64,000 nt of DNA from Ignavibacteriota bacterium (GTDB taxonomy: Bacteria > Bacteroidota > Ignavibacteria > UBA10030 > UBA6906): assembly GCA_963801355.1 (NCBI GenBank), contig CAWDEM010000008.1, positions 1,760,001 to 1,824,000 of the forward strand, given 5' to 3'. The notes below the pieces were generated by a model, which was not told the origin of the DNA, made no database searches, and saw nothing but the letters and a program-made list of their open reading frames with translations. Positions 27,767 through 51,649 of the stretch are shown in pieces. Positions within the stretch are counted from its first letter, which is position 1; every line of letters begins with the position of its first letter. A program made the position numbers and the translations under genes.

Positions 27767-30358
27767 TCATTCAAATACGTTCTCGATGAGGACAAAGCGC
27801 ATTTTTCGGTAGCTCTCAGTGTAGGCGATCTCGCTGGCATCCCTGCTGACACTGAAGTAGGCACCCAGACCCGGGAATCTCCTCACCATCAGGTCCTTCC
27901 CGCCCGGCAGGGAAATATGGTGAAGCTCCGAGCTCCCAAGAGGGACATAATACAAATCGCGCATCCCCGGGGGAAATATCCCGTACGAGATCCCTCTGGT
28001 CAGTCTTCTTGTGTTTGCCGTCCTTGTTGCACTGAAGGCGGATCCCGCAGTTATCCACCAACCTTCTCTGCCGCTTCGCCAATCAAGCCCGACAACGTAC
28101 TTCCCTTGTAGCACTGGGACCGCCATCACTGAATCTTCTGAGATCTTCACCCCGCCGGGCTTATCGATAGCCCTCGTGTATGTGCCTGAAAATCCCCATG
28201 ATGCAAACTCCTTTTCACTGTACCAGGGAGAGTTTCCCCCTCTGCCCATAGCTCTCGGCTGGCCTGGGCTGTCAGCCTGAATCAGATAGACTTGCGAGGA
28301 ATCTTGGGGGTCGGAACCCCTGCGGGAATGGTATGTTATCCACTTCTCATCGGGAGACCAGAGTGGCGCGGATTTGTACAGAAGATCATCCGTCAACTTC
28401 CTGACGTTCCCCCCGTCTCTGTCCATCAAGTAAATGTTTCTCGCGGTGTTGATGGCGTCAACTTCTTGTGCGGGAAAAGCGATATACCGCCCGCTTGGTG
28501 AAATCGAGGCCAGCCCTCGTTCCCGTTCATCCACAGTGAGTTGCCGGATGGTGCCATCTTTGGTGCTGGCGATCTTGATCTGTCCGATGTCCTGGATTTC
28601 TGCGTACATCAGCTTGTCGCCATCCGGCGTCATGCCCAGGGGGACGTCAGGTCCGCTACCGCGGGTTACCCGAACAGGCTCTCCCCCGCTTGCCGGGATC
28701 ATCCAGATATTAACGTTGCCGCCCCTGTTCGATGAATAGAAGATATGACCTGTCCGGGTCCAGATTGCATCATCCGCAAATTTCTCATCACGGGTCAGTG
28801 GAAGGTCTCTGCCACTCTCAAGGTCACGGATCATGATCTCGGAGTGTCCCTGCGGAAAGTTCCTTGTCCATGCGATTGATTTGCCATCGGGCGAGTAATG
28901 GAATGCGAAGCGAATCCCGGGACTTGCTGTTATGGTGTCGGTGATCTCGATACGGCGATCCGATCCGTCCGGTTTGCAGCTCCACCACCGATTGATCGAT
29001 CGACCCGCCCTGAGATCCTCGTCGTGCAGATATCCGAACCGCTCCCCATCGGGCCTCCAGACCTGGTCGTAGCCATTGTCCACGACGACCCTCCCCGTCC
29101 CACCCAGCGAAGAAATACTTACGATTTCGTAAGGTTCCCGGGGAGCAGAGTGACGCGAATAGAGGATCGTGCCTGCATCCGGCGATAGGGCGACATTGAA
29201 TATGTGACTGCAGGAATCGTGTGTAATTCTTCGCGGTTGTCCCTGCGCAACGTTCATCATGTAGACGTCAAACTTGTCGCGATCATCTGCAGCGGGGAAA
29301 GCGATCCAGCTTCCATCCCGTGACATGCTGGCATAGGCAACATCCCGGAAAGGGAGTTGCAGGACCCGGAATTTCATCTCCGGATTGAGCCGAGGTGCAC
29401 GGGAGAGCAGAAGAACCGCGACGACCGCACACACAACTGCGATTGCACCGGACAGGAGAAAAGCGAGCCGCCGCTTTGAGCGACCCCGCGGATTCCCCGG
29501 AGGGACCATGGCCATCTCCCCATGGCGCTCGGGGAATCGCACAACTCTCGTGCTCTCCTTTTTGAGTCTGCGAAGGTCAATCACCATATCGTGGACAGTC
29601 TGATACCGCTCCTCAGGATCCTTTTCCAGCGCCCGGTTGACTACATGCAACAACTCCGACGGGGCATCCGGGAGAGCCTTCTGTAGCGATTCAGGCTCCT
29701 CGTTCACGATTGAATACATCATCGCCGCCTCGTGCTCTCCCCGGAAAGGCAGGTGGCCCGTCAGCATTTCATAGAGCACCACGCCGAACGAGAAAATGTC
29801 CGACCGGGCATCAGTTTCTCTCCCTTCAATCTGCTCCGGTGCCATGTATGCCAGGGTCCCAACGGTGCTCGATGTCTTTGTAAGCTTCAGTGACCCCTTC
29901 AGCCTCGCTAACCCGAAATCCATCACTTTTACCTGGTCTTTCGAGTTGACCATGATGTTGTCTGTCTTGATGTCGCGATGCACGATCCCTTTGCTGTGGG
30001 CCTCATGAAGTGCCTCACCGATCTGTATCGCGTAGCCGACCGCTGCCTGGATCGAGCGAACAGGCACCATCTGGCTGAGTGTCTTGCCATCGACATATTC
30101 CATCGCGATGAAGGGCTGGTCTTCAGCTTCTGCAATATCGTAGATGGTGCAGACGTTGGGATGGTTGAGGGCGGAGGCGGCCTGAGCTTCCTGCAGAAAA
30201 CGGGCCCGCTCGGGTTCGTGAGACTGGAGACTGTGGGGGAGGAATTTCAGCGCGACGGTACGTTTGAGGCGGGTGTCTTCTGCTTTGTAGACGACACCCA
30301 TGCCGCCTTCGCCGAGCTTTTCGAGGATCTTGTAGTGGGAAACGGTCTGGCCGATCAT
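27767..30358 (-). CDS. Ser/Thr protein kinase K1: kinase - TM - PD40/TolB-like beta-propeller
   Basis: GEGGMGVVY, VALK, HRDIK, DFG, YMAPE; one TM; SPDG/WSPD repeats; ATG at 30358. Confidence 0.92.
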   Translation of the reverse strand: MIGQTVSHYKILEKLGEGGMGVVYKAEDTRLKRTVALKFLPHSLQSHEPERARFLQEAQAASALNHPNVCTIYDIAEAEDQPFIAMEYVDGKTLSQMVPVRSIQAAVGYAIQIGEALHEAHSKGIVHRDIKTDNIMVNSKDQVKVMDFGLARLKGSLKLTKTSSTVGTLAYMAPEQIEGRETDARSDIFSFGVVLYEMLTGHLPFRGEHEAAMMYSIVNEEPESLQKALPDAPSELLHVVNRALEKDPEERYQTVHDMVIDLRRLKKESTRVVRFPERHGEMAMVPPGNPRGRSKRRLAFLLSGAIAVVCAVVAVLLLSRAPRLNPEMKFRVLQLPFRDVAYASMSRDGSWIAFPAADDRDKFDVYMMNVAQGQPRRITHDSCSHIFNVALSPDAGTILYSRHSAPREPYEIVSISSLGGTGRVVVDNGYDQVWRPDGERFGYLHDEDLRAGRSINRWWSCKPDGSDRRIEITDTITASPGIRFAFHYSPDGKSIAWTRNFPQGHSEIMIRDLESGRDLPLTRDEKFADDAIWTRTGHIFYSSNRGGNVNIWMIPASGGEPVRVTRGSGPDVPLGMTPDGDKLMYAEIQDIGQIKIASTKDGTIRQLTVDERERGLASISPSGRYIAFPAQEVDAINTARNIYLMDRDGGNVRKLTDDLLYKSAPLWSPDEKWITYHSRRGSDPQDSSQVYLIQADSPGQPRAMGRGGNSPWYSEKEFASWGFSGTYTRAIDKPGGVKISEDSVMAVPVLQGKYVVGLDWRSGREGWWITAGSAFSATRTANTRRLTRGISYGIFPPGMRDLYYVPLGSSELHHISLPGGKDLMVRRFPGLGAYFSVSRDASEIAYTESYRKMRFVLIENVFE

Positions 30359-30472
30359 GGGGAACCCCAAGGGATTATCCACTATCCATGGATCTTGGGT
30401 AATTCGATCCCAACGGCACCGAGAACCAGGAGTACGGCACAATGATACGGCAGGAAAAATCGATAGTCAAAC
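30351..30472 (-). repeat. Promoter/leader/start module, copy 1 (K1)
   Basis: TTGACT-N17-TATCAT (30470-30442). Block 30407-30439 matches 32793-32825 at 28/33 nt. 24 nt longer than the other copies. Confidence 0.8.
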
Positions 30473-30475
30473 GAT

Positions 30476-31645
30476 CTATTCTGTGACGATTTCGATGATG
30501 TCCTCCAGCATGCGGTCAGGACACTTCCCATGCATGACGTTGATGATGACGGCTATGCTCACACCGTAATCCGGCAGATATGCCATATAGGCGGACGTGC
30601 CGATATTTCCTCCTCCATGTCCGTACGCCTTCTCCCCATTTGTTATCTTCTCCTTGAAGAGGAACACCCCCAGACCGTAGCCTTCGCACCAAGAACCTGC
30701 AGCGGCAGGATTGAAATCCAACATCTGATCCAATGACGCTCTTTTCAGGATCTTTCCGCCAAAGAGAGATTGACACCATACTGCCAGATCCTGGGCGGTG
30801 GTAAACACTCCTGATGATCCATATGTAATACTTTCGTGCGATGCCCTCGGAATGTATGTCAAATCCCTGATCGAGCCGTCCTTTTCAAAATTGTCTCCCC
30901 ACACATGCGCCAGCTGATCCATTGGAATATCCTCTTCCATCGAAAGGTACGTGTGTGTGAGTCCAAGCGGTTGCCAGAAACGCCGACGGAATTCTGTCGA
31001 GAGGGACGAACCGGTTGCCCGGGTTATGATCTGTGCAAGCAACAGGTAGTTCGTATTCGAATACCGGAAGCCCTTGCCCGGAGCGAAATGGGGATCTTTC
31101 AAATAGGTCAACACGACTTCCGGAGTGAAGACACTGTCACGATAGGCGATGAGGTCATCCCACAACTTCTGGTTCTCCCAGAACATGAAAACCCCGCTCG
31201 TGTGCGAGAGAAGCTGCCGGATCGTGATCGCGCCATCGATCTTGGGATGTGTCGGAAGCCATCTCTTCACCGGATCTTCCAGGGAGAGCAGTCCTTCCTC
31301 CGCGAGTCGGAGCACAAGGGCTGCGACCATGTTCTTGGTGATGCTGCCGGTGGCAAAGAGCATGTTTGGTTTCATGGCAACGGTATCGTGCGAGACACCT
31401 GCGCCTATGCAATGGACGGTTCCATCGCGCAACACGACTGCCGTGGATGCCCCCTTTACATCGTACTGTTGCAGCCGATCATTCAGAGCATCTCTCAACC
31501 GTTCGTCAAGTGAACGGACATCCCGGGAGCATGACGAGATGTAGGCAAGTGCTGAGGTAAGCAGTATGACGCCGAGTCTCGGACAGCAGACAATGGAAAA
31601 CCTTTCAAAGCAGTGACTCTTCCGTCGTTGTCGCTGGTTCTTCAT
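30476..31645 (-). CDS. Serine hydrolase, beta-lactamase/S12 family
   Basis: SITK (SxxK), LLSHTSG, YSNTNY, GHGG motifs; possible lipoprotein signal (YISSC). Confidence 0.88.
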   Translation of the reverse strand: MKNQRQRRKSHCFERFSIVCCPRLGVILLTSALAYISSCSRDVRSLDERLRDALNDRLQQYDVKGASTAVVLRDGTVHCIGAGVSHDTVAMKPNMLFATGSITKNMVAALVLRLAEEGLLSLEDPVKRWLPTHPKIDGAITIRQLLSHTSGVFMFWENQKLWDDLIAYRDSVFTPEVVLTYLKDPHFAPGKGFRYSNTNYLLLAQIITRATGSSLSTEFRRRFWQPLGLTHTYLSMEEDIPMDQLAHVWGDNFEKDGSIRDLTYIPRASHESITYGSSGVFTTAQDLAVWCQSLFGGKILKRASLDQMLDFNPAAAGSWCEGYGLGVFLFKEKITNGEKAYGHGGGNIGTSAYMAYLPDYGVSIAVIINVMHGKCPDRMLEDIIEIVTE

Positions 31646-31654
31646 TGCACCCTC

Positions 31655-31816
31655 CTACTCCGATTCCGGAATGACGCACCGGAAGCCGATCCAGTGGATG
31701 CGATTGGATGAAGGGGTCAGTCCCTTGCGATAGGAGGCTCGAACGTGCCAGCGGGGATCGTACACCATAACCATCTTATCCTTCTCGCGAACGAATGTGC
31801 TTCCTAACTTCTTCAT
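31655..31816 (-). pseudogene. Internally deleted FGE-sulfatase (SUMF1/EgtB-type) gene remnant, 53 aa
   Basis: MKKLGSTFVREKDKMVMVY|DPRWHVRASYRKGLTPSSNRIHWIGFRCVIPESE*: typical FGE-domain start fused in frame to the typical R..R..GFRC end. Confidence 0.7.
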
Positions 31817-31898
31817 GAACCGCCTGGAGGACAGGGTGAAGAGTCCCCCGTGGGTGGAGAGGGACTTGAATTCAATGGTTGAATACAGGTGTACTTCG

Positions 31899-32768
31899 TC
31901 AGAACATCACCATCAGCGATGATAGAACAATGGCAACGCACACAGCGAGGTGTATGATAAATGCGTAGCTCCGGGCCTTTGCCATCTTCCTTGTATTCGT
32001 GTGTTCGTTCCACGAAAGGGTCACGATTTTCAGTGCTAGACCGACTGAAAGGAGTGCGATCAACGACAGGGGTGCCAGCGATGACCGCATTCGTACCCCC
32101 GAGACAAGTGCTGCGTAGATCAGCATTGACAGGACGAGCGTGACATAGCGACCAGAAAGGCGAGGGGCAAACATCATGACCATAGTCTTGCGCCCAGTTC
32201 TCTCGTCATCGACCCTGCTAACTAGTTCATCGGTCCAAACCCACAGACCGGTTGCAGCAACAATCGGCAGTGCAGCCAGGTACACATTGCGCGTGAGGTC
32301 GCCGACCTGGACGAGGTACCCTCCGAGCACAGGCACCAAACCAAGACCTTCGGCAAGGAGAACCTCACCACCGGCCCGCCGGCAGAAGTTGAACGGCGGC
32401 ACGACGTAAAGCACACCCGTGAAGAGCGTGACCAGCCCGTACACAATGAAGATGCTTTCAGGAACACCGCCGTGCAGTGTCAGTCCGCTATTCATATGGA
32501 GACCCAGGAGGCAGCCTGCTGCAATGCACACGACGGCAACCCGGGGAAGTCTGGGCCCTGTCCACCCATCCGTGAACCTGCCTTCGAAACGGACCAGCAG
32601 GGACGAGAAGCCGGCGTGGAATAATGCAGTCGCGATGAGAAACTCGATTGCCGCAAGCCAGTTGAACGAAAAGTCCGGCGGACGAAGCCAGAATGGAAGC
32701 GTCGTACCAACGAAGGCCGGGAGCAGAGAGGCGGTCCAAAAGCGGATTCCAGCGATTTCGCCGATCAT
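31899..32768 (-). CDS. UbiA prenyltransferase family (MenA-like) protein
   Basis: Multi-TM; ASLLPAFVG, YVVPPF..GGE, DELVSRVDDERTGRKT motif. Confidence 0.75.
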   Translation of the reverse strand: MIGEIAGIRFWTASLLPAFVGTTLPFWLRPPDFSFNWLAAIEFLIATALFHAGFSSLLVRFEGRFTDGWTGPRLPRVAVVCIAAGCLLGLHMNSGLTLHGGVPESIFIVYGLVTLFTGVLYVVPPFNFCRRAGGEVLLAEGLGLVPVLGGYLVQVGDLTRNVYLAALPIVAATGLWVWTDELVSRVDDERTGRKTMVMMFAPRLSGRYVTLVLSMLIYAALVSGVRMRSSLAPLSLIALLSVGLALKIVTLSWNEHTNTRKMAKARSYAFIIHLAVCVAIVLSSLMVMF

Positions 32769-32856
32769 GGGATACCTACACGAGAGAGCATCATCCCGAC
32801 GGCATGGAGAACCAACAGTACGGCAGTGACTTACGATTGAGAATACCTAGAGTCAA
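32761..32856 (-). repeat. Promoter/leader/start module, copy 2 (in front of the UbiA gene)
   Basis: CCGATCATGGGATACCT vs CCGATCATGGGAAACCT at 51109 (16/17); TTGACT-N17-TAAGTC; -10 lies 60 nt from the ATG as in K2 and K4. Confidence 0.75.
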
Positions 32857-32949
32857 GATGACGGATACAAGTGATCGCGGACTTCCAATTGAAAAGCCCG
32901 TGGAAGGTAGATAGACAGAAGTACTGTCCCTCCGGATCGCTGTGACGCG

Positions 32950-34455
32950 TCATCGAATGCGGGGAGTGGACCGACCGTGTGCGGTTCCTCCTGGGCGCTT
33001 CCCTCCCCGCCAGGGTTCCATAGCCTTGCGAACTTCCTCGGCAAGCCAGTCGGCCTCCCTCCTGTCATTAAGAAAAAGGAACGGAGAGATGGATTTCCCA
33101 TCCTCCTGGGTGAGGGTGATCGAGTAGTAACCGCGTTTCCCCGCTTGCGCCTCGCCTTTTACGCCGATCTTCGTAATGCTCGAGCAGGGCATGCGTCTGC
33201 CCATTGGCAATCGGAAACCGAATAGCAAGTTGCGAACGTTCACGTGCCCCTCCTCCACCACTATGCGGCTCTCGCCGAATACGAGAAAAACAGTTATGAA
33301 AGCGATGAGCAAGCTGAACATCCCGAATACCAGAGGGAAGATGAACGGTGCGCCGCCGAATATGAGGAGTGCGACAATTCCGGCAAAAATGAGGAAGATG
33401 GCCAGTGTAGGCAATGTGGCCGGTATCCCCCCGCGGGTTTTGAGGACGAACTCCGCCCCGCCCCCCGCGCTCGGAAGGATGGTGACACCCGTGTGGTCGG
33501 CGGGTGCGAGGATTGGAGTCCCGGCAGCAACATCCTCCGCGCGGAGTCGTTCCTCAGTGAGCTGAGGGGAGGATGCCATCGATTTGAAAACAGGAATCTC
33601 GAAACTCGTGGCAAAGTCAACACCCGGGACCGCAGCGGTAGCCTCAAGCTTCCAGAAGACCGAATTGCGCTCGTCTATCTGGCCGGTCGGGCTGAGGTCG
33701 TACGGGACCAGGAATCTCACCGTCGCGCTCTGTGTCACCCCTTCTCCCGTGGGCGATAGCTGGGCGACGGACTGCTCAGTCTGCCATTGCACTTCTTCGT
33801 GTGTGGAAGTGCCCTTGTTGGTCTTCCGCAATTGTCTGTGGATGCAGGAGAGCCGCACATTGAGCGCCTGGGCAGTCGGAAGGCCGCGCGGCAGAAGGAT
33901 GTTGCCCGTCACCTCTCCACCGAGGATTCCTGGCACACGCACCATCTGGAACAGACAGTCGCCGTATTTCACGCGTTGCATGGTCTTCCGCACAGCAACC
34001 ACGATGAGTCCGATGCCGACAATGGGAAACAGGAAGCCCAAGAGAGCGGCATAGTTTTCTTTTTCAAAGATCTCCTCGGGAAGGAAGATCAACGTTGGTG
34101 CGGCAATGAGGTTCCAGAGGAGGGCAAATCCCCAGAAGAACCATGTGGTGGACTTCTCCATGCTGCGAACTTGCCCGATGGCCCAGTCGTCGCGCCACTT
34201 CCAGGGCTCACTGGGGTAGGTCGCTCGCAGGCTTGCCTCACGTGCCTGGCTCCGGAATCCCGCGGAAGTGAGCGCAAGCACACCCAGACCAAAGCCCCCG
34301 AACGCCAGAGCCGCAATCAGCATCACAAGCGCGTTTGTCGTCTCGCCATCCTGAAGAGCCACGAAGGCTCCGTATGCAATCCCAATGCCGATCGCGCAGA
34401 AGATAAGCACAAATACATAGATGGCGATCTTTCCGAAATTCGATTCTGGTTCCAT
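32950..34455 (-). CDS. Hypothetical multi-pass membrane protein
   Basis: 501 aa, three TM pairs, PWKWRDDW and WKLE..A..PGVDFATSFEIPVF soluble beta-domain. Confidence 0.7.
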   Translation of the reverse strand: MEPESNFGKIAIYVFVLIFCAIGIGIAYGAFVALQDGETTNALVMLIAALAFGGFGLGVLALTSAGFRSQAREASLRATYPSEPWKWRDDWAIGQVRSMEKSTTWFFWGFALLWNLIAAPTLIFLPEEIFEKENYAALLGFLFPIVGIGLIVVAVRKTMQRVKYGDCLFQMVRVPGILGGEVTGNILLPRGLPTAQALNVRLSCIHRQLRKTNKGTSTHEEVQWQTEQSVAQLSPTGEGVTQSATVRFLVPYDLSPTGQIDERNSVFWKLEATAAVPGVDFATSFEIPVFKSMASSPQLTEERLRAEDVAAGTPILAPADHTGVTILPSAGGGAEFVLKTRGGIPATLPTLAIFLIFAGIVALLIFGGAPFIFPLVFGMFSLLIAFITVFLVFGESRIVVEEGHVNVRNLLFGFRLPMGRRMPCSSITKIGVKGEAQAGKRGYYSITLTQEDGKSISPFLFLNDRREADWLAEEVRKAMEPWRGGKRPGGTAHGRSTPRIR

Positions 34456-34515
34456 CGAACACCTTCTCTTCGGAGTACGTAAACAGTACAGCTGGTATTT
34501 GTCAAAAGTATCGAA

Positions 34516-35283
34516 TCACGCCCGCATGGGATTCCGGATTGTCTGCACGGCGACCGCAAAGAAGATCACAAGGAAGCACACGTAAGCCACCCCCTTCACG
34601 ACAAGCCCTTCAACCGTACCGGCTCCGATAGTGGCATACCGGAGGAAGTCTGTGTGCCAGCTCAGTGGATTGCCGAGCGACACCGTCTGCAGCCATCGCG
34701 GCAATGTCTCCGCCGGATAGAACATCGAACTGCTGAACATGAGAACGAAGTAGACCAGGTTGAGGAATGTGTTGAACATGTCGTTCCGGCGAATCCGGAT
34801 CGCAAACGTCACAAGGAAGAAGAACCATCCCGCCGTGCCAAGCACCTGGCCGACCGCGACAAGCCCGAGGAGATCCCAGCGGATGGTCAGACCGAGCACC
34901 GCACTCCCCACCACGATAGTCACGGCTGCCTGCACGAGCGCAAGAGCGCAGTTGAACAAAATCTTCCCCACAAGAAACTCGGAGCGTGTCATCGGGTAGG
35001 TGAGGAACTCATAGAAGATCCCGTTTTCTCGATCGACAAAGAAACCGTAGGAGGTATTGATCGCGATGCCGAAACTGGCCATGGACAGCACCCCGGCGAG
35101 AAAGAAGGCATTGTAGCTCACACGCAGACCGTCGACGACTACCCCGGACGGAAAAGCGCTGTTGAAACCGATGCCGAAAATCAGCAGGTACACCAGCGGC
35201 ATGAAGATATCATAGAACATCCAGTTCAGGCTGGTTGTCCGGATGCGGTAGTCCCGGTACATCACCGCGAGGATCATCCTCAT
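34516..35283 (-). CDS. ABC-2 type exporter permease
   Basis: 6 TM, DRENG..EFLTYP, FSSSMFYP..LP.W....NPL. Confidence 0.88.
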   Translation of the reverse strand: MRMILAVMYRDYRIRTTSLNWMFYDIFMPLVYLLIFGIGFNSAFPSGVVVDGLRVSYNAFFLAGVLSMASFGIAINTSYGFFVDRENGIFYEFLTYPMTRSEFLVGKILFNCALALVQAAVTIVVGSAVLGLTIRWDLLGLVAVGQVLGTAGWFFFLVTFAIRIRRNDMFNTFLNLVYFVLMFSSSMFYPAETLPRWLQTVSLGNPLSWHTDFLRYATIGAGTVEGLVVKGVAYVCFLVIFFAVAVQTIRNPMRA

Positions 35284-36260: not shown

Positions 36261-36287
36261 GCGTTTCAGTGTAACGATGAAGCAGCG

Positions 36288-38390: not shown

Positions 38391-38658
38391 GATGGGACGC
38401 CAGATGGGTTGTTGTGGATCAGGGTTTTCCGACTTCGAGCGCATGACGCGGTTCAGTCGCCGAACGGGCTGTCAACAGGGCATGGAACGAAAGATAGATC
38501 CCTCTGCCCGCGAGCGTGAGGATTGCAGCCAACCACCAAATATGGCCCGCAGCAAGCACCGCGAACTGGCTGGTCCATTCGGCGGCTCCATGCAGGTGGG
38601 GGATGCGTGAAATAACGTTGAGTATACAGAATTCGCCACAGAGAATCAATGAAACGGG

Positions 38659-38694
38659 AGATTGGCACAGAAGTCCAGATTGGTACAGAAGACC
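38659..38694. repeat. 18-bp tandem repeat x2
   Basis: AGATTGGCACAGAAGTCC / AGATTGGTACAGAAGACC (16/18). Confidence 0.75.
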
Positions 38695-38729
38695 TTCTAA
38701 CGATGGCAAACTCTGCGAGTTCTATGCCG

Positions 38730-39158: not shown

Positions 39159-39195
39159 GACCCTCTCCTTCCTTTCAAAAGGGAGCTACCACTTT

Positions 39196-40611: not shown

Positions 40612-40866
40612 GGTGCGGGCTCCTTCCTATTGAATCTTGTTTGAGTTCTGCATATTAATGTCACCCTGTTCGGCGAGCACGACAACCTCCCATCGATATT
40701 CATCGTAAGCATACATCCATTAACACAAGAATCCACGTCTCTGTTCCTCCAGTTTCCTCCCTGAACTCCTATGGAATAGTCCGGGGAAATCATTCCCCGG
40801 GAATCCTCCGCGGAGCGGGAAGGTACATCTTTGATTCTCCCCCTCCCTCAGGTGGTGTGGTGGTGA

Positions 40867-43197
<2,331 letters not shown>

Positions 43198-43230
43198 GCG
43201 TCGTGGAGACATCTTCCATGAATAGCATCC

Positions 43231-43263
43231 AGGAGTGCCACATCGTACCGATGTGGCACTTCT
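43231..43263 (+). terminator. Hairpin terminator between convergent katG and kinase K2
   Basis: AGTGCCACATCG-TAC-CGATGTGGCACT perfect 12-bp stem. Confidence 0.75.
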
Positions 43264-43306
43264 GTTACGAAGCCTCGTTCGATCCCAAAAAACGAGGTCA
43301 TCCACA

Positions 43307-45712
43307 TCATTCGACGAGCTTCAATTTCTTCAGGAAGGCCGTGAACCGGGGATCGCTTTCAATCCGCCTGAGCAACGGATCACCCACGATCTGACTCACG
43401 CCAGGATCCCGGCGCTCGTATGCGGTCTCGAGCCACTCAAACGCACGGTCCGCGTCACCCCGGTATGCATACACTTCCGCAATCTGGAACGGACCGTCGT
43501 TACTGTACGTTTCGATCAGTCTCTGCAGCAAACTGTCCGCGTCCTGCGTCCTTCCCGCAGCATGGTAGGCAATTGCCAGAGCCTGCTGCCGCCAGAATTC
43601 ATCCTGTTCGAGGCCGGCATTAGCGATCGCGCTGTCGACTTTTCCGAGCGCAAGGTAGCAGAATGCGATCAATGTGCGGGCGGCCGGATACCCCGGGCTC
43701 AGCTCCAGGACTTTGCGCACTTCTGCCAGGGACTCATCAATCCGGTTTGCATACCAATAGGCGAATGTCAGCACCCAGTGACTTCTGTCCAGGATCGGAT
43801 CGAGTGCGACGGCTTTTCGAGCGAGCGCGATGGCCTCATCCTGACGCCCCATGACCAGGGCAAAGACAGCCCTTCGGTTCACCGTCGCTGCATTTCCACG
43901 CCCGAGTTCCAGCGCTCTGCTGAACTCGCGATCTGCCCCCTTCCAGTCCCAGTCCTTTGTGTAGAGGACCTCTGCGAGGTTCCGGTGACCTTCGGCCAGC
44001 ATATCATCGAGTGCAATCGCCTTCAGCGCAGCCTTCCGCGCCTCTTCGACACTGACGGCGCTCCAGCCCTGGGCGAAAGCCATCTGGGCCAGAAGTGCAT
44101 CCGCGAGTGAGGCCCAGAGGCGTGCATCGGTGGAATCGATGTCAAGCCCGCGCCGATAGTACTCGATCCCCTTGAGAACGCTGGCGCGGTCACGTCGATT
44201 CACAAGATGTCTTCCTTGGAGGAGAAAACTGTACGCCGCCGTATTCACCTCGGACGGAGCGCTCAGCTCTGCTACTTCCACGGGAGAGAGGCGGGCCTTG
44301 AGCGCGGAGGCAATTTTCTGAGCGATCTCGCTTTGAATGGCGAAAATCTCCCTGTACTTCCGATCGTACGTCTCGGCCCAGAGATGCCTGTCGTTCGTCG
44401 CATCGATGAGCTGGGCAACGATCCTGACCTGATCCCCTGAACGCCGCACGCTTCCCTCCAGGATCACACCCGCATTGAGCTCCCTGCTAACCTCCCGGAT
44501 GGATTTTGTCGTCCCCTTGTACTGCATGACGGACGTCCGGGAAATAACATTGAGCTCGCCGATCTTGGCCAGCTGGGTAAGGATGTCTTCCGTGATGCCG
44601 TCCGAGAAGTACTCTTCCTCTTTGTCGCCCGCAAGATTGGTGAACGGGAGCACGGCGATCGTCTTATTGTTTGCCGCGCCAGGAGGAGTAGAGGGAAGGA
44701 ACAGATAGAGGCAGATGGCCGCGGCACCGAAGACTCCAGCGGCAATGAGGGAGTACAGCTTCCCCCGTGGTTTTCGCCCGGGTCCCGGAACCCTTCCATC
44801 CGGTACATTCTCGTGAGCAGGAGCCCCGACGGACGTTATTGCATTCGGTTGAACCTCTGCCGCGAGAAGTCTTGTTGTGTACCCGGCCGCCGCGAGATCC
44901 AGATGCTTCCGTTCGCGACGCAGATCGGAGAGCATGTCATCCACGCGCTGGTACCGCTCGTCGAGATCCTTGGCAAGTGCCTTGGCCACGATACGTTCCA
45001 CCTCTGGGCTCACCTTGTCATTGTACCGTGCCATCGGCGCCGGCTGCTCGTTTACCACCGCGTACAGGAGCGCTGCCTCGTGTTCACCCCTGAACGGAAG
45101 CTTGCCCGTAATCAGTTCATACAGGACAACTCCAAAGGAGAAGATGTCGGTTCGATGATCGACCTCCTCCCCACGAGCCTGTTCAGGTGACATATACGCG
45201 GCCGTCCCGAGGGTTGAACCAGCCCTGGTGAGTCTCGTCACACCCTTGAGCTTGGCAAGCCCGAAGTCCATGATCTTGACTTTTCCCTTCGGTGTGATCA
45301 TGATGTTATCGGACTTGATGTCCCGATGGACAATTCCCTTCTCGTGGGCGGTCGCTAGCCCGTCCGCAATTTGCATAGCCACGTCGAGAACCTGGGTGAG
45401 CGGGAGCATTGACCGGGAGGCAAGAACTTTGAGCGTCTCTCCTTCCACGTACTCCATGGCGAGGAACACGTTCTTATCGTGCTCGCAGATCTCGTATATG
45501 GTCGTGATGTTCGGGTGGTTGAGAGAAGACGCTGCCCGGGCTTCATGGTAGAATCGCTCCTTCTCCGAACTCTCGGATGTGAGGTGTGACGGAAGGAACT
45601 TCAAGGCCACGAGTCGATCGAGGGTCGAGTCATGGGCCTTGTACACAACACCCATTCCTCCCTCGCCCAGCTTTTCGAGGATCCGATAGTGGGAGACAAC
45701 CTGGCCTACCAT
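43307..45712 (-). CDS. Ser/Thr protein kinase K2: kinase - TM - TolB-N-like - TPR
   Basis: Hanks motifs (HRDIK, DFG, YMSPE), TM, IAVLPFTNL..LEGSVR, TPRs, DPRF C-terminus. Confidence 0.92.
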   Translation of the reverse strand: MVGQVVSHYRILEKLGEGGMGVVYKAHDSTLDRLVALKFLPSHLTSESSEKERFYHEARAASSLNHPNITTIYEICEHDKNVFLAMEYVEGETLKVLASRSMLPLTQVLDVAMQIADGLATAHEKGIVHRDIKSDNIMITPKGKVKIMDFGLAKLKGVTRLTRAGSTLGTAAYMSPEQARGEEVDHRTDIFSFGVVLYELITGKLPFRGEHEAALLYAVVNEQPAPMARYNDKVSPEVERIVAKALAKDLDERYQRVDDMLSDLRRERKHLDLAAAGYTTRLLAAEVQPNAITSVGAPAHENVPDGRVPGPGRKPRGKLYSLIAAGVFGAAAICLYLFLPSTPPGAANNKTIAVLPFTNLAGDKEEEYFSDGITEDILTQLAKIGELNVISRTSVMQYKGTTKSIREVSRELNAGVILEGSVRRSGDQVRIVAQLIDATNDRHLWAETYDRKYREIFAIQSEIAQKIASALKARLSPVEVAELSAPSEVNTAAYSFLLQGRHLVNRRDRASVLKGIEYYRRGLDIDSTDARLWASLADALLAQMAFAQGWSAVSVEEARKAALKAIALDDMLAEGHRNLAEVLYTKDWDWKGADREFSRALELGRGNAATVNRRAVFALVMGRQDEAIALARKAVALDPILDRSHWVLTFAYWYANRIDESLAEVRKVLELSPGYPAARTLIAFCYLALGKVDSAIANAGLEQDEFWRQQALAIAYHAAGRTQDADSLLQRLIETYSNDGPFQIAEVYAYRGDADRAFEWLETAYERRDPGVSQIVGDPLLRRIESDPRFTAFLKKLKLVE

Positions 45713-45802
45713 GAGAGAACTCCACAGGGGTGTATGAGCCGCATCGCATGGTGTATCTGGAGCGTGACAGCATAATACGAAGGGGGATCTGGATAGTCAA
45801 AC
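45705..45802 (-). repeat. Promoter/leader/start module, copy 3 (K2)
   Basis: TTGACT-N17-TATTAT (45800-45772); 25/31 identical to 51176-51206; gap-free colinear with the K4 leader. Confidence 0.8.
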
Positions 45803-45844
45803 CAGACCGAGCTGGCCCGACACCTCGGAGTCAGCAGAGCCTGA
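45803..45844 (+). pseudogene. 42-nt HTH gene remnant
   Basis: Translates QTELARHLGVSRA*, 10/13 aa identical to QTELARHLCVGRV at 51566. Confidence 0.7.
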
Positions 45845-45859
45845 CAGAGTTTCCTCATG

Positions 45860-48181
45860 CTACTTCTCCAGACCGAGCTTCTTGACCAGCGCTATGAAGC
45901 GAGAATCCGATCGGAGCGGGTCAACGCGGGGATCGCCCTTCAGCCAGATTACCTGATCATTCTTTTCCTCATACGCCTGTTGTAGCAGCTCTATCGCCCT
46001 CTCCTTCTTCCCCATGGAGCAATAGATCAGGGCGATGTCATAGGACGGCGGATAGGGATACATTGACAGTGCCTTAAGGATGGAATCGGCTCTCGTGGTT
46101 TCACCAGCTGCAGCATATGCCCGGCCGAGACCTGCCAAAACTACCGAGGAATTCTCCATCCGGAGTGCTATCTGGAACTCCGAGATTGCAGAGGAATAGT
46201 CCCCTTTTTGGAGATATTGGTCGCCCAGGACATATCGTGCGAAGTAGAATGAGGGATTCATTTCGACCGCTTTGCGGGCGTTTTCAAGTGCTTCGTCATA
46301 CCGGCGCATGAAGAACGCGGGCAGACCCATTTCGATGTTGATGAAAGGTGAGAGCGGGTCAAGCTGATGTGCTCGCTGCAGCTCCGCCTTGCCCTCATCG
46401 TAACGCCCCAGAAAAGTCAGGTACCTCCCGAACCAGAAGTGGGCCCCGGCGAAACCAGGGTTTAGCTCAATTGCCCGGCGAAATTCCGCCTCTGCTCCCG
46501 GCCAATCGAAGTCGTAGGCCATTTTCACGAGGGCAAGCGAAAGGTGTGCCTCGCTTAGCTGGCCGTCTCTTTCAACAGCCCGCAGTGCCGCTGCGCGCGA
46601 TCTCTCCATCGCTTGCTTTGGGGGAAGATACGTGTTCGACACCCAGTAGTACGCATCAGCCAGTCCCGCGTATGCCAGCGCGTATGTGGGATCCCTTGCG
46701 ATTGCCTGATCGTAGAATCCAACCGCCTTATGAAATCCTTCCTCTGTCAGTCTCTCGGCCCAGAAGCGACCCTTGAGGTAGAGCTGGTAGGCTTCTGCAT
46801 CCTGGGTGAAGGATTTGGAAAGGCGCCCTTGTTCAGCTCCGGACAACTTCAATCGCAGGCGGTCTGATATCTCTTCCGCGATCTCCTCCTGAAGAACCAG
46901 AATATCACTGAACTTGCGGTTATAGCGTTCCCCCCAGAGTTGGGTCCCTTCGATGGCATCGACCAGATCTGCTTGAATAGTCAGCAACTCCTCCCGTCGG
47001 ATTATTTTCCCCGTCAGCACTGCACGGACTTTGAGCGTTCTTCCGATTATTTGCGGTTCCTGTTCCTTCCCCTTGTAGCTGAACGCCGTCGTTCTCGCGA
47101 TGACACGCAGCTGAGGAAACTGAGCAAACTTGTTGATAAGGGTTTCTGTGAGGCCATCACAAATGTATTCAAGCGTCGAGTCACCTGTTGCATTGACAAA
47201 CGGCAGGAGGGCTACCGAATCGATGGCGGCAGGACGACGGGCAAGAAAAAGAGTTCCTGCCACTGCAAGGACAATGAATGCGACGACAACACTTGCATTT
47301 CGGATCAAACGTGGCCTTTGCCAGAATGGTTGCCTGAACTCCGGTCGAGGCAGACTGCTTGAGTCGCGTCCGCCGTTCAGCGCTCGCAGGTCCGCGCCCA
47401 ATGTCTCAATCTGCTGATATCGTTCTCGCTGGTCTTTCTGCATTGCTTTCATGACAATTTGCTGCAATGCTATTGGAGTTTCCGGCCTGAGTGTCTCAAT
47501 GCGCGATGGTTCCGCATTCAGCGTCTGGTAGATGATCGCCTGGTCATACTCGGCTTCAAAAGGCCGCCTGCCGGTAAACATTTCGTAGAGCACCACCCCC
47601 AGCGACCAAATATCGGTTCTGTGGTCAGCCGGTTCGCCTCGTGCCTGCTCGGGCGACATGTATGCTGCAGTCCCGAGTGTGCTGCCTGCTTTAGTGAGCA
47701 TCGTGCGGCCGCTAAGCTTTGCCAGTCCGAAATCGACGATCTTTGCCACGCCGTCTGTGGTCACTATGATGTTGGCCGGCTTGATGTCGCGGTGGATAAT
47801 GCCGTGCTCGTGAGCCTTGGTGAGACCCTGCGTCACCTGAACCGCGACATCGATAGCTTCGTCTATCTTCAGCGGTCCACGCTCGATCTTCTTCTTCAGT
47901 GTCTCTCCCTCGTAGAAGTCCATGACAATGAACGATTGCCCGTCGTCTGTCTCGTCGATATCATGGACGGTGCAGATATTATTGTGCTGGAGGGCGGAGG
48001 CAGCCTTCGCCTCGTGGATAAATCGCTGCTTTGCTTCGGGGTCACGGGTGAGATCGGGAGGAAGAAACTTAAGAGCTACCGTTCGGTCGAGCTTGAGGTC
48101 CAAGGCTTTGTACACAACACCCATCCCACCGCCGCCGAGGTGCTCGAGGATCTTGTAGTGCGAAACAGTTTTTCCAATCAT
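45860..48181 (-). CDS. Ser/Thr protein kinase K3: kinase - TM - TolB-N-like - TPR
   Basis: [41 protein letters not shown] TPRs. Confidence 0.92.
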   Translation of the reverse strand: MIGKTVSHYKILEHLGGGGMGVVYKALDLKLDRTVALKFLPPDLTRDPEAKQRFIHEAKAASALQHNNICTVHDIDETDDGQSFIVMDFYEGETLKKKIERGPLKIDEAIDVAVQVTQGLTKAHEHGIIHRDIKPANIIVTTDGVAKIVDFGLAKLSGRTMLTKAGSTLGTAAYMSPEQARGEPADHRTDIWSLGVVLYEMFTGRRPFEAEYDQAIIYQTLNAEPSRIETLRPETPIALQQIVMKAMQKDQRERYQQIETLGADLRALNGGRDSSSLPRPEFRQPFWQRPRLIRNASVVVAFIVLAVAGTLFLARRPAAIDSVALLPFVNATGDSTLEYICDGLTETLINKFAQFPQLRVIARTTAFSYKGKEQEPQIIGRTLKVRAVLTGKIIRREELLTIQADLVDAIEGTQLWGERYNRKFSDILVLQEEIAEEISDRLRLKLSGAEQGRLSKSFTQDAEAYQLYLKGRFWAERLTEEGFHKAVGFYDQAIARDPTYALAYAGLADAYYWVSNTYLPPKQAMERSRAAALRAVERDGQLSEAHLSLALVKMAYDFDWPGAEAEFRRAIELNPGFAGAHFWFGRYLTFLGRYDEGKAELQRAHQLDPLSPFINIEMGLPAFFMRRYDEALENARKAVEMNPSFYFARYVLGDQYLQKGDYSSAISEFQIALRMENSSVVLAGLGRAYAAAGETTRADSILKALSMYPYPPSYDIALIYCSMGKKERAIELLQQAYEEKNDQVIWLKGDPRVDPLRSDSRFIALVKKLGLEK

Positions 48182-48191
48182 CGGCAGATTT

Positions 48192-51116
48192 TCAATTCAC
48201 CGGCCCAAGATACCGATCGAGCCAGGCAAGTGTCTCCCTGGTTACGTCCTTGAGGGGCACGTAGTGATCAGAATCGTACAGCAGAAGCCGCTTCTGTCCC
48301 TGGGGGGTGCCCAGGCGTTCGTACATCGGCTCGATTGAAATGTCAAGGGGAAAAAACATATCATACTTCCCGTTGAGCATTAACGTCGGAATGTGTACAC
48401 GGGGGGCATAGTTGAATTCGTCCGCTTCCGGCCGCGGGGAAGCGTCAGCTCCAAATCCGCCCAGGAGGAGAATGCTTGCTTTCAGGCGCCCTTCCACTGC
48501 CGCAAAGATTGTCCCCAACCGGCCGCCCCAACTGAATCCATAGTATGCGAGCTTTGAAGTGTCAATGTCCTTCCTTGTGGAGAGATAGTCGATTGTCCTG
48601 CCGAAATCCTTGACCCATTTTACCACGAGCTCTGTGTACGCGTTCTGATATTTCTTCTTTGGCCAGACCTGATCGAACTTCACCCCAATGGTGTTCCGTT
48701 CGTAGGTCCCATAGTAGACCGGATACACTACGGCGCGCCCGCTTTTCAGTATGAAATCGAATAGTGTCTCGCCAACGAGTTTCTCACTCGACGGCAGGTG
48801 GGGTGCGTTCATTCCTGGAAAGAAGATGACCGTCTGGAAAGGCCCTGCAGATCTCCTGGGCAGGTACAGAAAGGCGATAACCCGTTCTCTGCCATAGGCC
48901 GCATCGAATGTGACCTTCTCTCGAATCCAGTCCGGTGAGCTTTCATTCCGACCCTCAACGGCAGAGTTGAGATCCATCTTGTCGTAGGAGAATTGATCCG
49001 CATACACATGGAAGATCGCGTCTGGTACGGGATGTTCATGCCTGTAGTCTCTTGTTGGCCAGTCCACTCGAGCAAATGCTCGCTGGGGGATCCTGGCCTT
49101 GTCCAGGTAGCAAACGCATCGAAACCCGTTCTTTTCTGAGCGGTCAAACGCCGGAGCCTGGCTCAAATGACCGTACATATAGGAGACGTCGTTCCAGGCG
49201 CCACCCCTCACGCAACGCCCTCCTTTCGATTCGTTGAAACACCACTCCCGCACATTCCCTGCCATGTCATAAGCCCCGTAGGTACTCATCCCCTCGTAGG
49301 CCCCGACGCGACAAGGTCCCGAGCTGCCGAAGTTGCTGAGGTTTCCAATCTTGGTGGGAAAGTACTGATACACTATCTGCAGTCCTGCGGCAACGTACCA
49401 ATGGTATGCCGTCGGTAGATCCTTCCCCGAGAATTCTGCGTATGCCGCGGCTTCATACCAGTTTACGCCGGACACCGGATAGTCTTCCTGTCCGTCCGGA
49501 TAGTCTCCCGCTTGCCATGTCGAGGGGCCCGGCCTCCCCGTCGCGTCCACGAATTGCTGCATCGCTTCCTGCCACGAGAGCTTCTTGCCATCCCTGACGA
49601 ATTCATGCTTCCAGTACTTGATGTTTTGATAGCCTCCTGCCTCGATGAACTTCATGTACTGAGCGTTCGTCACTTCATATTTGTCCATGAAGAATTCGCC
49701 AAGAGTCACTACGGTATCTTCTATTTCGTACGACCTCCCCCCGGACACACGCACCATTCCCTGGGGTGTTCTTCCCAGTGTGTCCAATCTCCTCCAGAGC
49801 GAGTCTTGTGTGAAGAACACTGCGAAGAGGGTGTCAAAGCCTGCTTTCTCGAATTTCCAGCGGAAGAAGCCTTTGGGTACTCTTACACTGTCCAGTGGGG
49901 TCACACCGACATTGGTCCATTCGCTCTCCACAGACGAATACTCTTTGCGGAAAGCATTCGCACCCGGCGGGTCAGTCCGGATGTTCATTCTCACTGAAAA
50001 CGTCGGCCAGAGCTTCGCCAATGCGGAGTCATCGGGAATGTACCTCTCCGCCTTCTTGGCGAGCATAAATGCATCTTGAAATTCAGTTAATCTTCCGGTC
50101 AGAATTGCCTGTTCCGCCAGCCGTTTGATTTCGGGAATCGCCTCATTTCTTGCCCATTGGGTTTTCTCAGCCTGGTCTACGTACCAGGCAAGTGCACCAA
50201 CGATCACAACCACCGCTCCAATAAGCGGGATGAGTGTCTTCGGACGTATGAACCTTCGTGCGAGAGCGACAGGGCTGCGCTGAGTTGTGGTAGGCTGAAG
50301 ACATGTGCTTTTGATCTCGGTAAGATCGTTGAGAAGGTCTGTGGCAAGCTTGTATCGTTCCGAAGGGTTCTTCTCGAGTGCCTTCCGGACGATCTTCGAC
50401 AGCTCCGGCGGCACGTCGGGTCGAATCTGGTCTATCGGTTTCGGATCTTCGTTGAGAATGGAATACATGAGCGCGGCATCATGGTCGCCCCTAAACGGGA
50501 GCTGTCCGCTCAACATTTCGTAGAGGACAGCTCCAAGCGACCAGATGTCGGTGCGGTGATCGGTGAGTTCGCCCCGCGTCTGCTCGGGCGACATGTATCC
50601 AGCCGTCCCGAGCGTGGTGCCTGTCTTGGTGAGCATCGTTCGGCCGCTGAGCTTCGCCAGTCCGAAATCGACGATCTTGGCCACGCCATCGGTGGTGACC
50701 ATGATGTTGGCGGGCTTGATGTCGCGATGGACAATGCCGTGATCGTGGGCCTTGGCCAGACCTTGAGCAATCTGGATCGCGATGTCGATCGCTTCCTCAA
50801 TCTTCAACGGGCCGCGCTCAATCTTCCTCTTGAGCGTCTCGCCTTCGTAGCAGTCCATGATAATAAAGAGCTGGCCCTCAGGTGACTCCTCGATATCATG
50901 GATCGTACAAATGTTGTTGTGTTGGAGAGCAGAGGCTGCCTGAGCCTCATGGATGAATCGCTGCTTGGCCTCAGGATCGCGAGTGAGCTCGGGAGGGAGG
51001 AATTTCAGCGCAACCGTGCGTTCAAGCTTGAGGTCCTGGGCTTTGTAGACAACACCCATCCCGCCGCCGCCGAGGTGCTCGAGGATCTTATAGTGGGAAA
51101 CGGTGTGGCCGATCAT
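48192..51116 (-). CDS. Ser/Thr protein kinase K4: kinase - TM - FGE-sulfatase domain - alpha/beta hydrolase
   Basis: Kinase motifs; [27 protein letters not shown]; GFSWGG nucleophile elbow with downstream D and H. Confidence 0.92.
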
Positions 51117-51206
51117 GGGAAACCTGGATGAGCGTGTACGATTCCCGTGGCATGAAGAATCAGCAGTACGGTCGTATAATACGGGAGGGGATGGTGATAG
51201 TCAAAC
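51109..51206 (-). repeat. Promoter/leader/start module, copy 4 (K4)
   Basis: TTGACT-N17-TATTAT (51204-51176), 60 nt from the ATG. Confidence 0.8.
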
Positions 51207-51250
51207 GCCGCATAGGCCCCGGGTCGATCAAGTCACAGTTAGAGAAGCCC

Positions 51251-51302
51251 GAAAACACGAAGACCCAAAGCCACCTTTCCTCAGTAGTTTGAGTCTTCGT
51301 GT
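51251..51302 (-). terminator. Terminator-like hairpin directly downstream of the tRNA fragment
   Basis: ACACGAAGAC (51255-64) / GTCTTCGTGT (51293-302), followed by a short T run on the minus strand. Confidence 0.65.
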
Positions 51303-51305
51303 ACT

Positions 51306-51330
51306 TGGCTCCGCGAGCAGGACTCGAACC
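51306..51330 (-). mobile_element. tRNA 3'-end fragment (Asn-like), putative att site of an integrative element
   Basis: Minus strand GGTTCGAGTCCTGCTCGCGGAGCCA = T-loop, 3' T-stem, acceptor 3' strand and CCA. The 5' half of the tRNA is absent. Confidence 0.75.
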
Positions 51331-51649
51331 GAGCCCAAACTCATCATATGGCGAAATCAGGCACCTGGCGCGTCCAAGAGTTCTCTTTGTTCACGGTTGT
51401 TACGCCTCAAGGGTACAATTGCAGTACAGTCGAATTGAGAGGCACTCTGAGAAGCTCGAGGCGAGAAAGGACCCACAAACAACTCAACGGGGCCCACCAC
51501 GTTTCGATTACCATGCACTTCAACAGAGCTATGCGAAGATGCTGTCTGAAGGACCGTTCAAAACGCAGACGGAGCTCGCTCGTCATTTGTGTGTCGGCAG
51601 AGTGTGGGTCAGTAGGGCGTTAAAGGGGATCAAGAGGAGGGCCAGCTGA
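51331..51649 (+). pseudogene. Small HTH protein remnant adjacent to the att fragment
   Basis: ..YAKMLSEGPFKTQTELARHLCVGRVWVSRALKG..; true start unclear. Confidence 0.55.

Follow-up and report, generated by a model that had tools for sequence, protein, structure and literature searches.

A strain-variable zone downstream of tRNA-Asn in an Ignavibacteriota bacterium, read as a tandem island array with an older layer of Hanks-type kinase genes

The stretch of DNA analysed here (the window) comprises 64,000 nucleotides of the genome of an Ignavibacteriota bacterium (assembly GCA_963801355.1, contig CAWDEM010000008.1, positions 1,760,001 to 1,824,000). Between positions 27767 and 51649 it carries four genes for Hanks-type kinases, K1 to K4, together with copies of a promoter/leader module, a displaced 3' fragment of a tRNA-Asn gene and the remains of a small gene for a helix-turn-helix (HTH) protein (Table 1). 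A first-pass annotation had proposed that these features form a tandem array of kinase-headed units accreted at a tRNA attachment site. In our best reading, 27767-51649 is the tRNA-distal and oldest end of a zone of ~112 kb that lies on the 3' end of a tRNA-Asn gene. Plain positions refer to the window and those marked C8 to the contig that holds it; G000 is the genome under study.

Kinases and junctions in the window

All four minus-strand open reading frames (ORFs) K1 to K4 contain a Pkinase domain (E 7.6e-51 to 5.6e-57 in Pfam) with scores of 173-194 bits against a Pfam cut-off of 31.7, which places them among Hanks-type kinases, and each has one hydrophobic segment directly C-terminal to the kinase domain. 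These results confirm the earlier description as four same-strand, single-pass Hanks kinases. Their C-termini also differ largely as had been described, with PD40 repeats in K1, TPR in K2 and K3, and an FGE-sulfatase domain plus a hydrolase in K4. The TolB-N domain that had been assigned as well was detected by Pfam in neither K2 nor K3, and the juxtamembrane part of K2 gave only a sub-threshold FlgO match. We set the start of K1 at MIGQ; in the ORF list its frame reaches back to a TTG at 30442. K3 starts 10 nt past the stop codon of K4 and has no promoter/leader module of its own, so the two genes are probably co-transcribed.

The most informative junction lies at the rightmost module, where the order is as originally reported: K4, its module, a hairpin followed by UUUUC, the tRNA 3' fragment and the rightward-reading HTH gene. 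The hairpin is probably the old terminator of the tRNA, and homologues of it lie after tRNA-Asn fragments (cores) at locus L019 of genome G031 and locus L020 of genome G032, and before a further kinase gene, kinase B, at C8 1860972-1861028. On the other side of the fragment follows an island-side arm of what we call the beta type, which has replaced the first ~37 codons of the HTH gene. A collapsed version of this junction had been suspected near 45800, and a 14-codon HTH remnant does abut the K2 module directly there. There is no tRNA fragment at this position nor on the left side of K2, and we read 45797-45838 as a collapsed junction. The window holds no tRNA gene and no Phage_integrase or Resolvase match, in agreement with the earlier statement that it lacks an integrase.

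Table 1. Positions of the kinase genes, modules, junction elements and neighbouring genes in the window
Feature	Position	Strand	Basis
Rightmost gene of the conserved left flank, bordering the variable zone	22255-23250	+	80% aa identity to G004 C5 327010-328014
K1, single-pass Hanks kinase with PD40 repeats	27767-30358	-	Pkinase E 5.6e-57; TM (transmembrane) segment aa 295-325
Promoter/leader module before K1	30383-30480	-	nhmmer E 1.6e-9
UbiA-type prenyltransferase gene, starting MIG behind a module	31899-32768	-	UbiA E 4.2e-9; weak sub-cut-off MenA-type NCBIfam matches
Promoter/leader module before a non-kinase gene	32766-32867	-	nhmmer E 6.5e-9
Catalase-peroxidase gene	40912-43197	+	Peroxidase E 2.7e-74; 85.7% nt identity to L019 3458-5786
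K2, single-pass Hanks kinase with TPR	43307-45712	-	Pfam; TM segment aa 317-342
Promoter/leader module before K2	45710-45811	-	seed copy; TTGACT-17-TATTAT at 45800-45772
HTH remnant, 14 codons SNQTELARHLGVSR	45797-45838	+	tblastn 14/14 identical to copy C8 1858045-1858302; blastn 85% over 47 nt
K3, single-pass Hanks kinase with TPR	45860-48181	-	Pfam; single hydrophobic segment
K4, single-pass Hanks kinase with FGE-sulfatase and DLH/PETase-type hydrolase	48192-51116	-	TM segment aa 289-316
Promoter/leader module before K4	51114-51215	-	seed copy; TTGACT-17-TATTAT at 51204-51176
Terminator hairpin (type T1), probably of the tRNA	51251-51302	-	-27.1 kcal/mol, z -4.9, then UUUUC
Displaced tRNA-Asn 3' fragment, T-loop to acceptor end, 25 nt	51306-51330	-	exact 22-nt core 51308-51329
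Island-side arm (beta type) with TGTACTGCAATTGTAC at 51413-51428	51331-51465	-	78% identity to C8 1887517-1887659
HTH 3' part, 49 codons + stop, of the 86-aa family	51500-51649	+	69% aa identity to intact copy
GH38 alpha-mannosidase-like gene, first cargo of the next segment	51785-54550	+	Pfam

Displaced tRNA-Asn ends and a strain-variable zone

The fragment beside K4 belongs to a series that leads to an intact gene. Allowing up to three mismatches, its 25-mer matches the genome at four sites (C8 1811306, 1862013, 1887535 and 1895345), all on the minus strand and within 84 kb, and a reversed control pattern gave no match. The rightmost site corresponds to the 3' exon of a minus-strand gene for tRNA-Asn(GTT), C8 1895347-1895731 (L008 11347-11731), which is 71 kb away from the right end of the window and 84 kb away from the fragment inside it. 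A group I intron of 312 nt interrupts this gene in the anticodon loop (Rfam RF00028, 86 bits; aragorn -i), and plain aragorn lists no other tRNA-Asn among the 47 tRNAs of the genome. An intact minus-strand tRNA had thus been correctly expected to the right, with the difference that the predicted end was GGAGCCA and the gene ends in GGAGC, CCA not being encoded. The remaining three sites hold displaced, co-oriented, exact 22-mers in the window (51308-51329) and at C8 1862015-1862036 and 1887537-1887558, so that two further exact copies bound islands between the tRNA and the window, in line with the accretion model. The window copy is the outermost, and the segments between cores measure 7.8, 25.5 and 50.7 kb.

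In six genomes (G000, G004, G001, G013, G031 and G032), all displaced cores begin at GTTCGAG after sequence unrelated to the tRNA. This shared start base fits a fixed crossover point, which random duplication would not predict. The 7.8-kb segment nearest the tRNA has a kinase gene, kinase A, near its tRNA-proximal end and a beta arm at its far end; kinase A and its module lie 0.9 kb downstream of the intact tRNA, where a module and kinase had been anticipated. The 25.5-kb middle segment contains neither a kinase nor an HTH gene. A Pfam scan of part of the ~55 ORFs in the three segments found glycoside hydrolases, an esterase, an XRE regulator, kinases and DUF6036 as cargo.

Comparison with G004, a genome of the same genus, delimits the zone. 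It is syntenic with G000 from the tRNA rightwards for at least 24 kb and shares the gene at 22255-23250 on the left (Table 1). Between these conserved flanks it has 34 kb with no kinase and no ORF shared with the 112 kb of G000 (blastp 1e-10). The stretch from about 23250 to tRNA-Asn, which holds K1 to K4, is therefore a strain-variable zone of ~112 kb. G004 has two displaced cores of its own, and the 10 ORFs scanned there include genes for trehalose synthesis, NhaA and ClC; Pfam found no integrase among these 10. Copy number of the 22-mer in five genomes of the genus is 4, 2, 2, 0 and 3, and 13 of 31 related genomes contain it at least once. The proposed polymorphism between strains is borne out both by these counts and by the completely different content in G004. 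Four metagenome runs matched against C8 1884001-1904000 gave only short contigs at low depth (shares <=0.15), and within this thin cover no core-core joint and no excised or empty-site form was seen. Skips of 330 nt at the tRNA in the reads were traced to intron-less tRNA-Asn genes of other organisms.

Several further observations concern this and other tRNA genes. Intron-bearing tRNA-Asn genes (introns of 249-307 nt) are also present in G018, G031 and G032, and the gene at L039 is intron-less; the syntenic gene of G004 holds a 265-nt intron and is labelled tRNA-His by aragorn. A literature search for group I introns in tRNA-Asn gave no bacterial case by title. Within the zone, two paralogous gene clusters in different segments, C8 1824041-1835773 (starting just right of the window) and 1876504-1883283, share 72-75% nucleotide identity over ~5.5 kb in four pieces. 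Remnants of rve-type insertion sequence (IS) transposases lie inside the array at C8 1890550-1890846 and 1886110-1886258. A 154-nt repeat that begins with the last 49 nt of tRNA-Pro(CGG) flanks a 5.2-kb segment around kinase A in two 95% identical copies (C8 1889621-1889773 and 1894838-1894991) and recurs at C8 15954-16106, 36558-36733, 62749-62854 and 72502-72597; one copy precedes the module of the C8 16659 kinase by ~430 nt, and the locus of this kinase is paralogous to that of kinase A (77-82%). A second island array may lie at the start of C8, given that tRNA-Pro(CGG) itself is 2 kb away from the end of contig C4. Exact displaced 3' fragments also exist for other tRNA genes (C8 614067-636582 and C4 442721-527491), three for tRNA-Lys(CTT) and four for tRNA-Pro(TGG), with no kinase beside any of them.

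A genome-wide kinase family and its promoter/leader module

The genome encodes 31 single-pass Hanks kinases of one family, and those of the window are ordinary representatives of it. On average, one such gene occurs per 155 kb of the 4.8-Mb genome, 25 of the 31 sit outside the array, and the N-terminus typical of K1 to K4 is common to 29 of them. The close relationship of these N-termini that had been pointed out is thus real, though it does not mark units. Six kinases lie inside the array, namely K1 to K4 plus A and B (the latter two with Pkinase scores of 181-193 bits). They do not form a clade (the tree needs six changes against a mean of 5.7 in shuffled data, with 16 of its 28 inner branches open, so that it is largely unresolved) and hence are not simple local duplicates. 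K1 groups at 100/100 with three kinases sited elsewhere in the genome and has no tRNA fragment or HTH gene beside it. Kinase A, together with the 0.7 kb upstream of it, has a paralogous counterpart at C8 15954-17265. Kinase B stands behind the core at C8 1862013, with a 1-kb DUF6036 gene and a decayed core in between. Of the three displaced cores, two have a kinase domain starting close by, at 216 and 1227 nt.

The distribution of the promoter/leader module is similar. We built a profile from three copies, including 45710-45811 and 51114-51215, and searched with nhmmer at E < 1e-3. The window contains four copies, as had been noted, of which one precedes the UbiA-type gene and none belongs to K3. 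In the ORF downstream of the module at 32766-32867 only the codons MIG of a kinase start are kept; the module was probably left behind by loss of a kinase, and neither a fragment nor an HTH gene lies beside it. Genome-wide we found 19 copies, seven in the variable zone and 12 elsewhere. Those 12 stand before full kinases (eight), truncated kinase heads (two) and other genes (two), and no tRNA-Asn fragment or HTH gene is near any of them. The first-pass annotation had tied the module to both and had named its occurrence before scattered kinases without either as grounds against the model, and for the module this is the pattern observed. The module is the promoter and 5' leader of the kinase family; because module and N-terminus occur genome-wide, they do not mark units.

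A structured RNA in the leader was considered and rejected, with folding z-scores of -0.25 (K4 copy) and +0.39, and a search of Rfam in the four core loci matched only the group I intron. Kinase genes are often broken within their conserved head. Truncated heads that retain the module lie at C4 865897-865987, C8 2188353-2188431, C8 1857722-1857867, C8 1858342-1858481 and window 32766-32867; one of them is joined via its first three codons to the UbiA-type gene and others stop after 18-68 codons.

The HTH gene and the older units

The HTH gene belongs to a family of 79 database proteins, mostly of 86 amino acids, and all three copies in G000 are inside the array: an intact one at C8 1858045-1858302, 49 codons at 51500-51646 and 14 codons at 45797-45838. 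Its upstream region is characteristic. In nine of ten aligned regions from G000, G031, G032, G033 and G034, a terminator-like hairpin is followed by (TT)GGCTCCGCGA, a motif that corresponds to the acceptor end of tRNA-Asn, and then by a diverged T-arm part. The exception is L019_b, the second copy on L019; a copy on L021 from a sixth genome, read separately, also has hairpin and motif. The acceptor part GCTCCGCGA is intact in six of seven decayed copies, and the flanking hairpins and the T-stem part have diverged. In G031 (L019), the orthologue of the catalase-peroxidase gene of the window directly abuts a decayed tRNA-Asn fragment plus HTH gene.

Other genomes, too, have units of HTH gene and kinase with tRNA-Asn fragments between them, L020 of G032 being the clearest case. 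There the order is fragment, HTH, kinase, module, fragment, HTH, kinase, module, hairpin and exact core, with HTH plus kinase units of ~3 kb between fragments, and the two HTH copies are 49% and ~78% identical to the G000 copy. In both G031 and G032 younger, kinase-free islands adjoin the tRNA, and in G033 the HTH/fragment units carry other cargo. The HTH gene, and not the module or the N-terminus, is the true hallmark of the older units of the array. The idea that each unit includes a small HTH gene thus holds in so far as this gene is tied to decayed tRNA-Asn fragments, and fails for K1, the module at 32.8 kb and the middle segment, none of which has one.

The HTH protein gave only sub-threshold HTH matches in Pfam and NCBIfam. 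An AlphaFold model of the 86-aa protein (pLDDT 80) had no match in the PDB at E <= 0.001, the best being generic HTH domains of the ParB, XRE and Aca types. Among the 25 most frequent Pfam families in its neighbourhoods (72 neighbour ORFs at 24 loci) there was no integrase or resolvase. A role as excisionase or recombination directionality factor is not supported, with neither linkage to an integrase in these neighbourhoods nor a significant structural match.

Arm motifs and the search for a recombinase

Cores can be accompanied by a direct repeat, TGTAC-N6-TGTAC (typically TGTACCGTAATTGTAC), which has the same orientation as the core and stands 99-110 nt upstream or 67-69 nt downstream of it. 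In the whole genome, TGTAC-N5-8-TGTAC has 34 matches versus ~25 expected, and three of the 34 sit 67 or 99 nt from cores, co-oriented, at three of the four cores of G000 (window 51413-51428, C8 1887642-1887657 and C8 1895286-1895301). In other genomes the motif occurs at offsets of -109/-110 and +67 to +69 in 6 of 12 distinct cores; five metagenome contigs that had been selected by the motif itself are not counted as support. Intact tRNAs have the +67 site, an internal core of G031 has both sites, and the outermost cores of G031, G032 and the window have the upstream site only. We take the positioned TGTAC repeats to be probable arm sites of a recombinase, with the +67 site a putative mark of the island head. 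The window motif also overlaps a promoter-like TTCACG-18-TACAAT that faces the HTH gene.

No recombinase lies near the intact tRNA, where one had been predicted. The nearest Phage_integrase match is an Xer-like gene beside leuS (C8 1922581-1923636; L061 18581-19636), 27 kb away on the 5' side of the tRNA. Its best NCBIfam matches are XerC/XerD, far below every cut-off, and the integron integrase model scores 25 bits against 265. A weak Phage_integrase match likewise lies 24-28 kb from a tRNA-Asn core in G004, G013, G016 and G018, so that the position is syntenic in five genomes. This leuS-linked gene looks like a housekeeping gene and can be put forward as a candidate recombinase only. Scans for arm motif plus core found no viral contig and five metagenome contigs, and no tyrosine integrase was among eight ORFs scanned from these five. 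An intact copy of an rve-type transposase on an island next to an intact tRNA-Asn (metagenome contig L069, 3715-4740) was read as that of an IS, which has many broken copies in G000, and dismissed as recombinase of the island.

Competing explanations

We favour, at a probability of roughly 0.55, the explanation that the zone is a tandem island array at tRNA-Asn which arose by accretion of the familiar type and includes an older, integrase-less layer of HTH and kinase genes. Repeated site-specific insertion into the T-loop/acceptor part of tRNA-Asn would enlarge the zone, and each insertion would restore the tRNA and push a copy of its last 22-25 nt, along with everything downstream, further away. 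As no segment encodes a recombinase, the enzyme would have acted in trans or have been lost since, and the segments resemble cis-mobilizable elements (CIMEs). The older layer would consist of pairs of the 86-aa HTH gene and a kinase, split by decayed tRNA-Asn fragments with the tRNA terminator, and in the window it would read K2, HTH remnant, K3-K4, fragment. Such pairs would be early-generation accreted units that are now fixed. The data show the anatomy, the tRNA, its repeats, the variation between genomes and the spread of the module across the genome, from which we infer how recombination worked and that the HTH/kinase pairs were once mobile. As members of units, K1 and the 32.8-kb module are putative at most.

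A number of observations weigh against this explanation. From C8 1586k to 1922k nothing matches PF00589, the genome as a whole lacks PF00239 matches, whole-genome searches of G000 and G004 place all PF00589 matches outside the arrays, and Pfam scans of some ORFs found no recombinase in the islands of G004, G031 and G032. The decayed fragments upstream of HTH genes share a derived expansion of 5-6 nt between T-loop and acceptor parts and therefore descend from one ancestral junction. A core-less junction at C8 1857722-1858434 is orthologous to L020 8630-9344 (77-84% identity), so that this part of the array was inherited and is no recent gain. The outermost exact core of G031 and of G032 has the island-side arm motif alone, and kinase/HTH units are placed further out still. 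Since the window core, too, has only the upstream arm motif, the hairpin-module-kinase side of the fragment at 51306 looks like an old chromosomal flank and not like the head of an element. Furthermore, a near-identical beta arm stands next to cores on two metagenome contigs (L069 and L070), both without an HTH gene, and the exact adjacency of core and HTH gene at 51306-51649 may therefore be secondary. The shared expansion and the orthologous junction fit the spread of one element family with this sequence in its attachment arm and the tandem duplication of a chromosomal pair alike.

The model of the first-pass annotation goes further in that every kinase would head its own mobile unit, with promoter and kinase tRNA-proximal and HTH gene distal, and successive entry would yield a growing repertoire. 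The order core, terminator, module and kinase at K4 speaks for it, as do the same order at kinase B (with the 1-kb DUF6036 insert and the decayed core), the module and kinase 0.9 kb from the intact tRNA, the two clean ~3-kb HTH plus kinase units of L020, and the 7.8-kb segment with kinase A at one end and the beta arm at the other. However, 12 of 19 modules and 25 of 31 kinases lie outside the array, no fragment accompanies K1, the left side of K2 or the 32.8-kb module, and one of the three exact-repeat islands, the middle segment, has neither kinase nor HTH gene. The G004 islands at the same tRNA are free of kinases, the kinase flank lacks the +67 arm motif that would mark island heads, units in G033 hold other cargo, and no recombinase was found. 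Of the original proposal, the tRNA, the displaced fragments and the polymorphism therefore stand; the module and N-terminus as markers of its units do not, the mobility of kinase-headed units is unproven, and as a whole we consider it unlikely.

We are similarly doubtful of an explanation that dispenses with mobile HTH/kinase pairs altogether. Here the pairs would be original chromosomal neighbours of tRNA-Asn that were multiplied by unequal crossing-over between the conserved kinase heads and modules and broken by deletions, and only the three exact-repeat segments would have been inserted, which moved this block away from the tRNA. The derived features shared by the decayed fragments, which point to one ancestor, and the junction orthologous between G000 and L020 agree with this, and so do the units of G031 and G032 beyond the outermost exact core, the many truncated kinase heads with modules that imply frequent breakage and joining, and the paralogy between the kinase A locus and C8 15954-17265. 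Against it, GCTCCGCGA is intact in six of seven decayed copies despite diverged surroundings, none of the clustering expected of local duplicates is seen for the array kinases as a group, the HTH copies of a single genome are far apart (49% and ~78% to G000 in L020), and a tRNA-Asn fragment is kept at every HTH copy whose upstream region was examined, across six genomes. The kept acceptor part and the divergent HTH copies would favour repeated recombination, short of proof. Rather improbable, in our view, is an integrase-less cassette system, in which small units of HTH gene and receptor kinase, each with a tRNA-Asn 3' repeat at its end, would be inserted, stacked and lost at the intron-bearing tRNA-Asn by an unrecognised or chromosomal recombinase reading TGTACCGTAATTGTAC. 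Finally, with 31 kinase genes in 4.8 Mb, a stray tRNA-like 25-mer might have come to lie beside one by chance. We give this hardly any credence, given four co-oriented matches versus none in the control, the same junction architecture in G031 and G032, and kinase domains 216 and 1227 nt from two of three displaced cores where one per 155 kb is the average.

Relation to known systems and significance

The closest known system is the set of tandem ssrA islands of Dehalococcoides. These lie in tandem within 100 kb, with 20-bp repeats, a strain-variable number of islands and paralogous dehalogenase genes as cargo; most carry a conserved integration module with the serine recombinase DsiB, some lack an integrase and are discussed as CIMEs joined by accretion, and the last repeat is followed by an older block that is fixed and rich in paralogs (PMC3146451). 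The array at tRNA-Asn shares the row downstream of one small-RNA gene, the ~20-bp repeats of its 3' end, an insertion point in the T-loop, a number of islands that depends on the strain, a cargo drawn mostly from one paralogous family of environment-facing genes, members that lack an integrase, and an older block past the outermost repeat. It differs in that its target is a tRNA-Asn with a group I intron, that the recurring genes encode Hanks kinases and a small HTH protein instead of dehalogenases, and that there is no recombinase in the G000 array or in the examined parts of three other genomes.

The Islander approach accepts a tandem array only if every member has its own integrase, and it lists 125 tandems of at least two and four of at least three among 3919 islands (PMC4383910). 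The tRNA gene arrays of Islander resemble ours in the regenerated tRNA, the displaced co-oriented 3' fragments at island ends and the crossover in the T-stem/T-loop. Of the features by which Islander recognises islands, we found an intact tRNA with co-oriented fragments on the same replicon, the same crossover, an island-specific 5' side and variation in presence or absence, and no integrase belonging to each island. Because Islander demands the latter, this array would be rejected by its filter. As in CIMEs, the segments are flanked by att-like exact cores and showed no recombination or transfer genes (in a partial Pfam scan, with recombinases covered by a whole-genome family search). Pavlovic et al. 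2004 are said to have described CIMEs and the accretion-mobilisation of ICESt1-type elements in Streptococcus thermophilus; unlike these, the present array has no cognate, integrase-bearing partner element. Integron cassette arrays consist of promoter-poor or single-gene units split by short recombination sites, with the recombinase outside the units. Our array is similar in that units are separated by short sites with no recombinase inside. Unlike in integrons, there is no intI next to it, the nearest tyrosine recombinase being the one 27 kb away beside leuS, and its repeats are derived from a tRNA instead of attC hairpins.

Tandem islands at tRNA genes are textbook knowledge, but standard detectors demand an integrase per island and would miss the array described here. 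Four genomes of one little-studied family have exactly bounded islands at the same tRNA-Asn and no tyrosine integrase by whole-genome search or partial scan, and the exact bounds together with the conserved, positioned arm motifs point to a recombinase that acts in trans. In the array one also sees a large family of sensor kinases being reshuffled, as heads with their promoter have time and again been cut short, duplicated or linked to other genes. Should the HTH/kinase pairs prove mobile, strains would have in this locus a natural means of exchanging receptor kinases. If units of HTH gene and kinase were indeed exchanged as cassettes, it would amount to an exchangeable sensor repertoire in an Ignavibacteriota-like family, integron-like in function but based on a tRNA.

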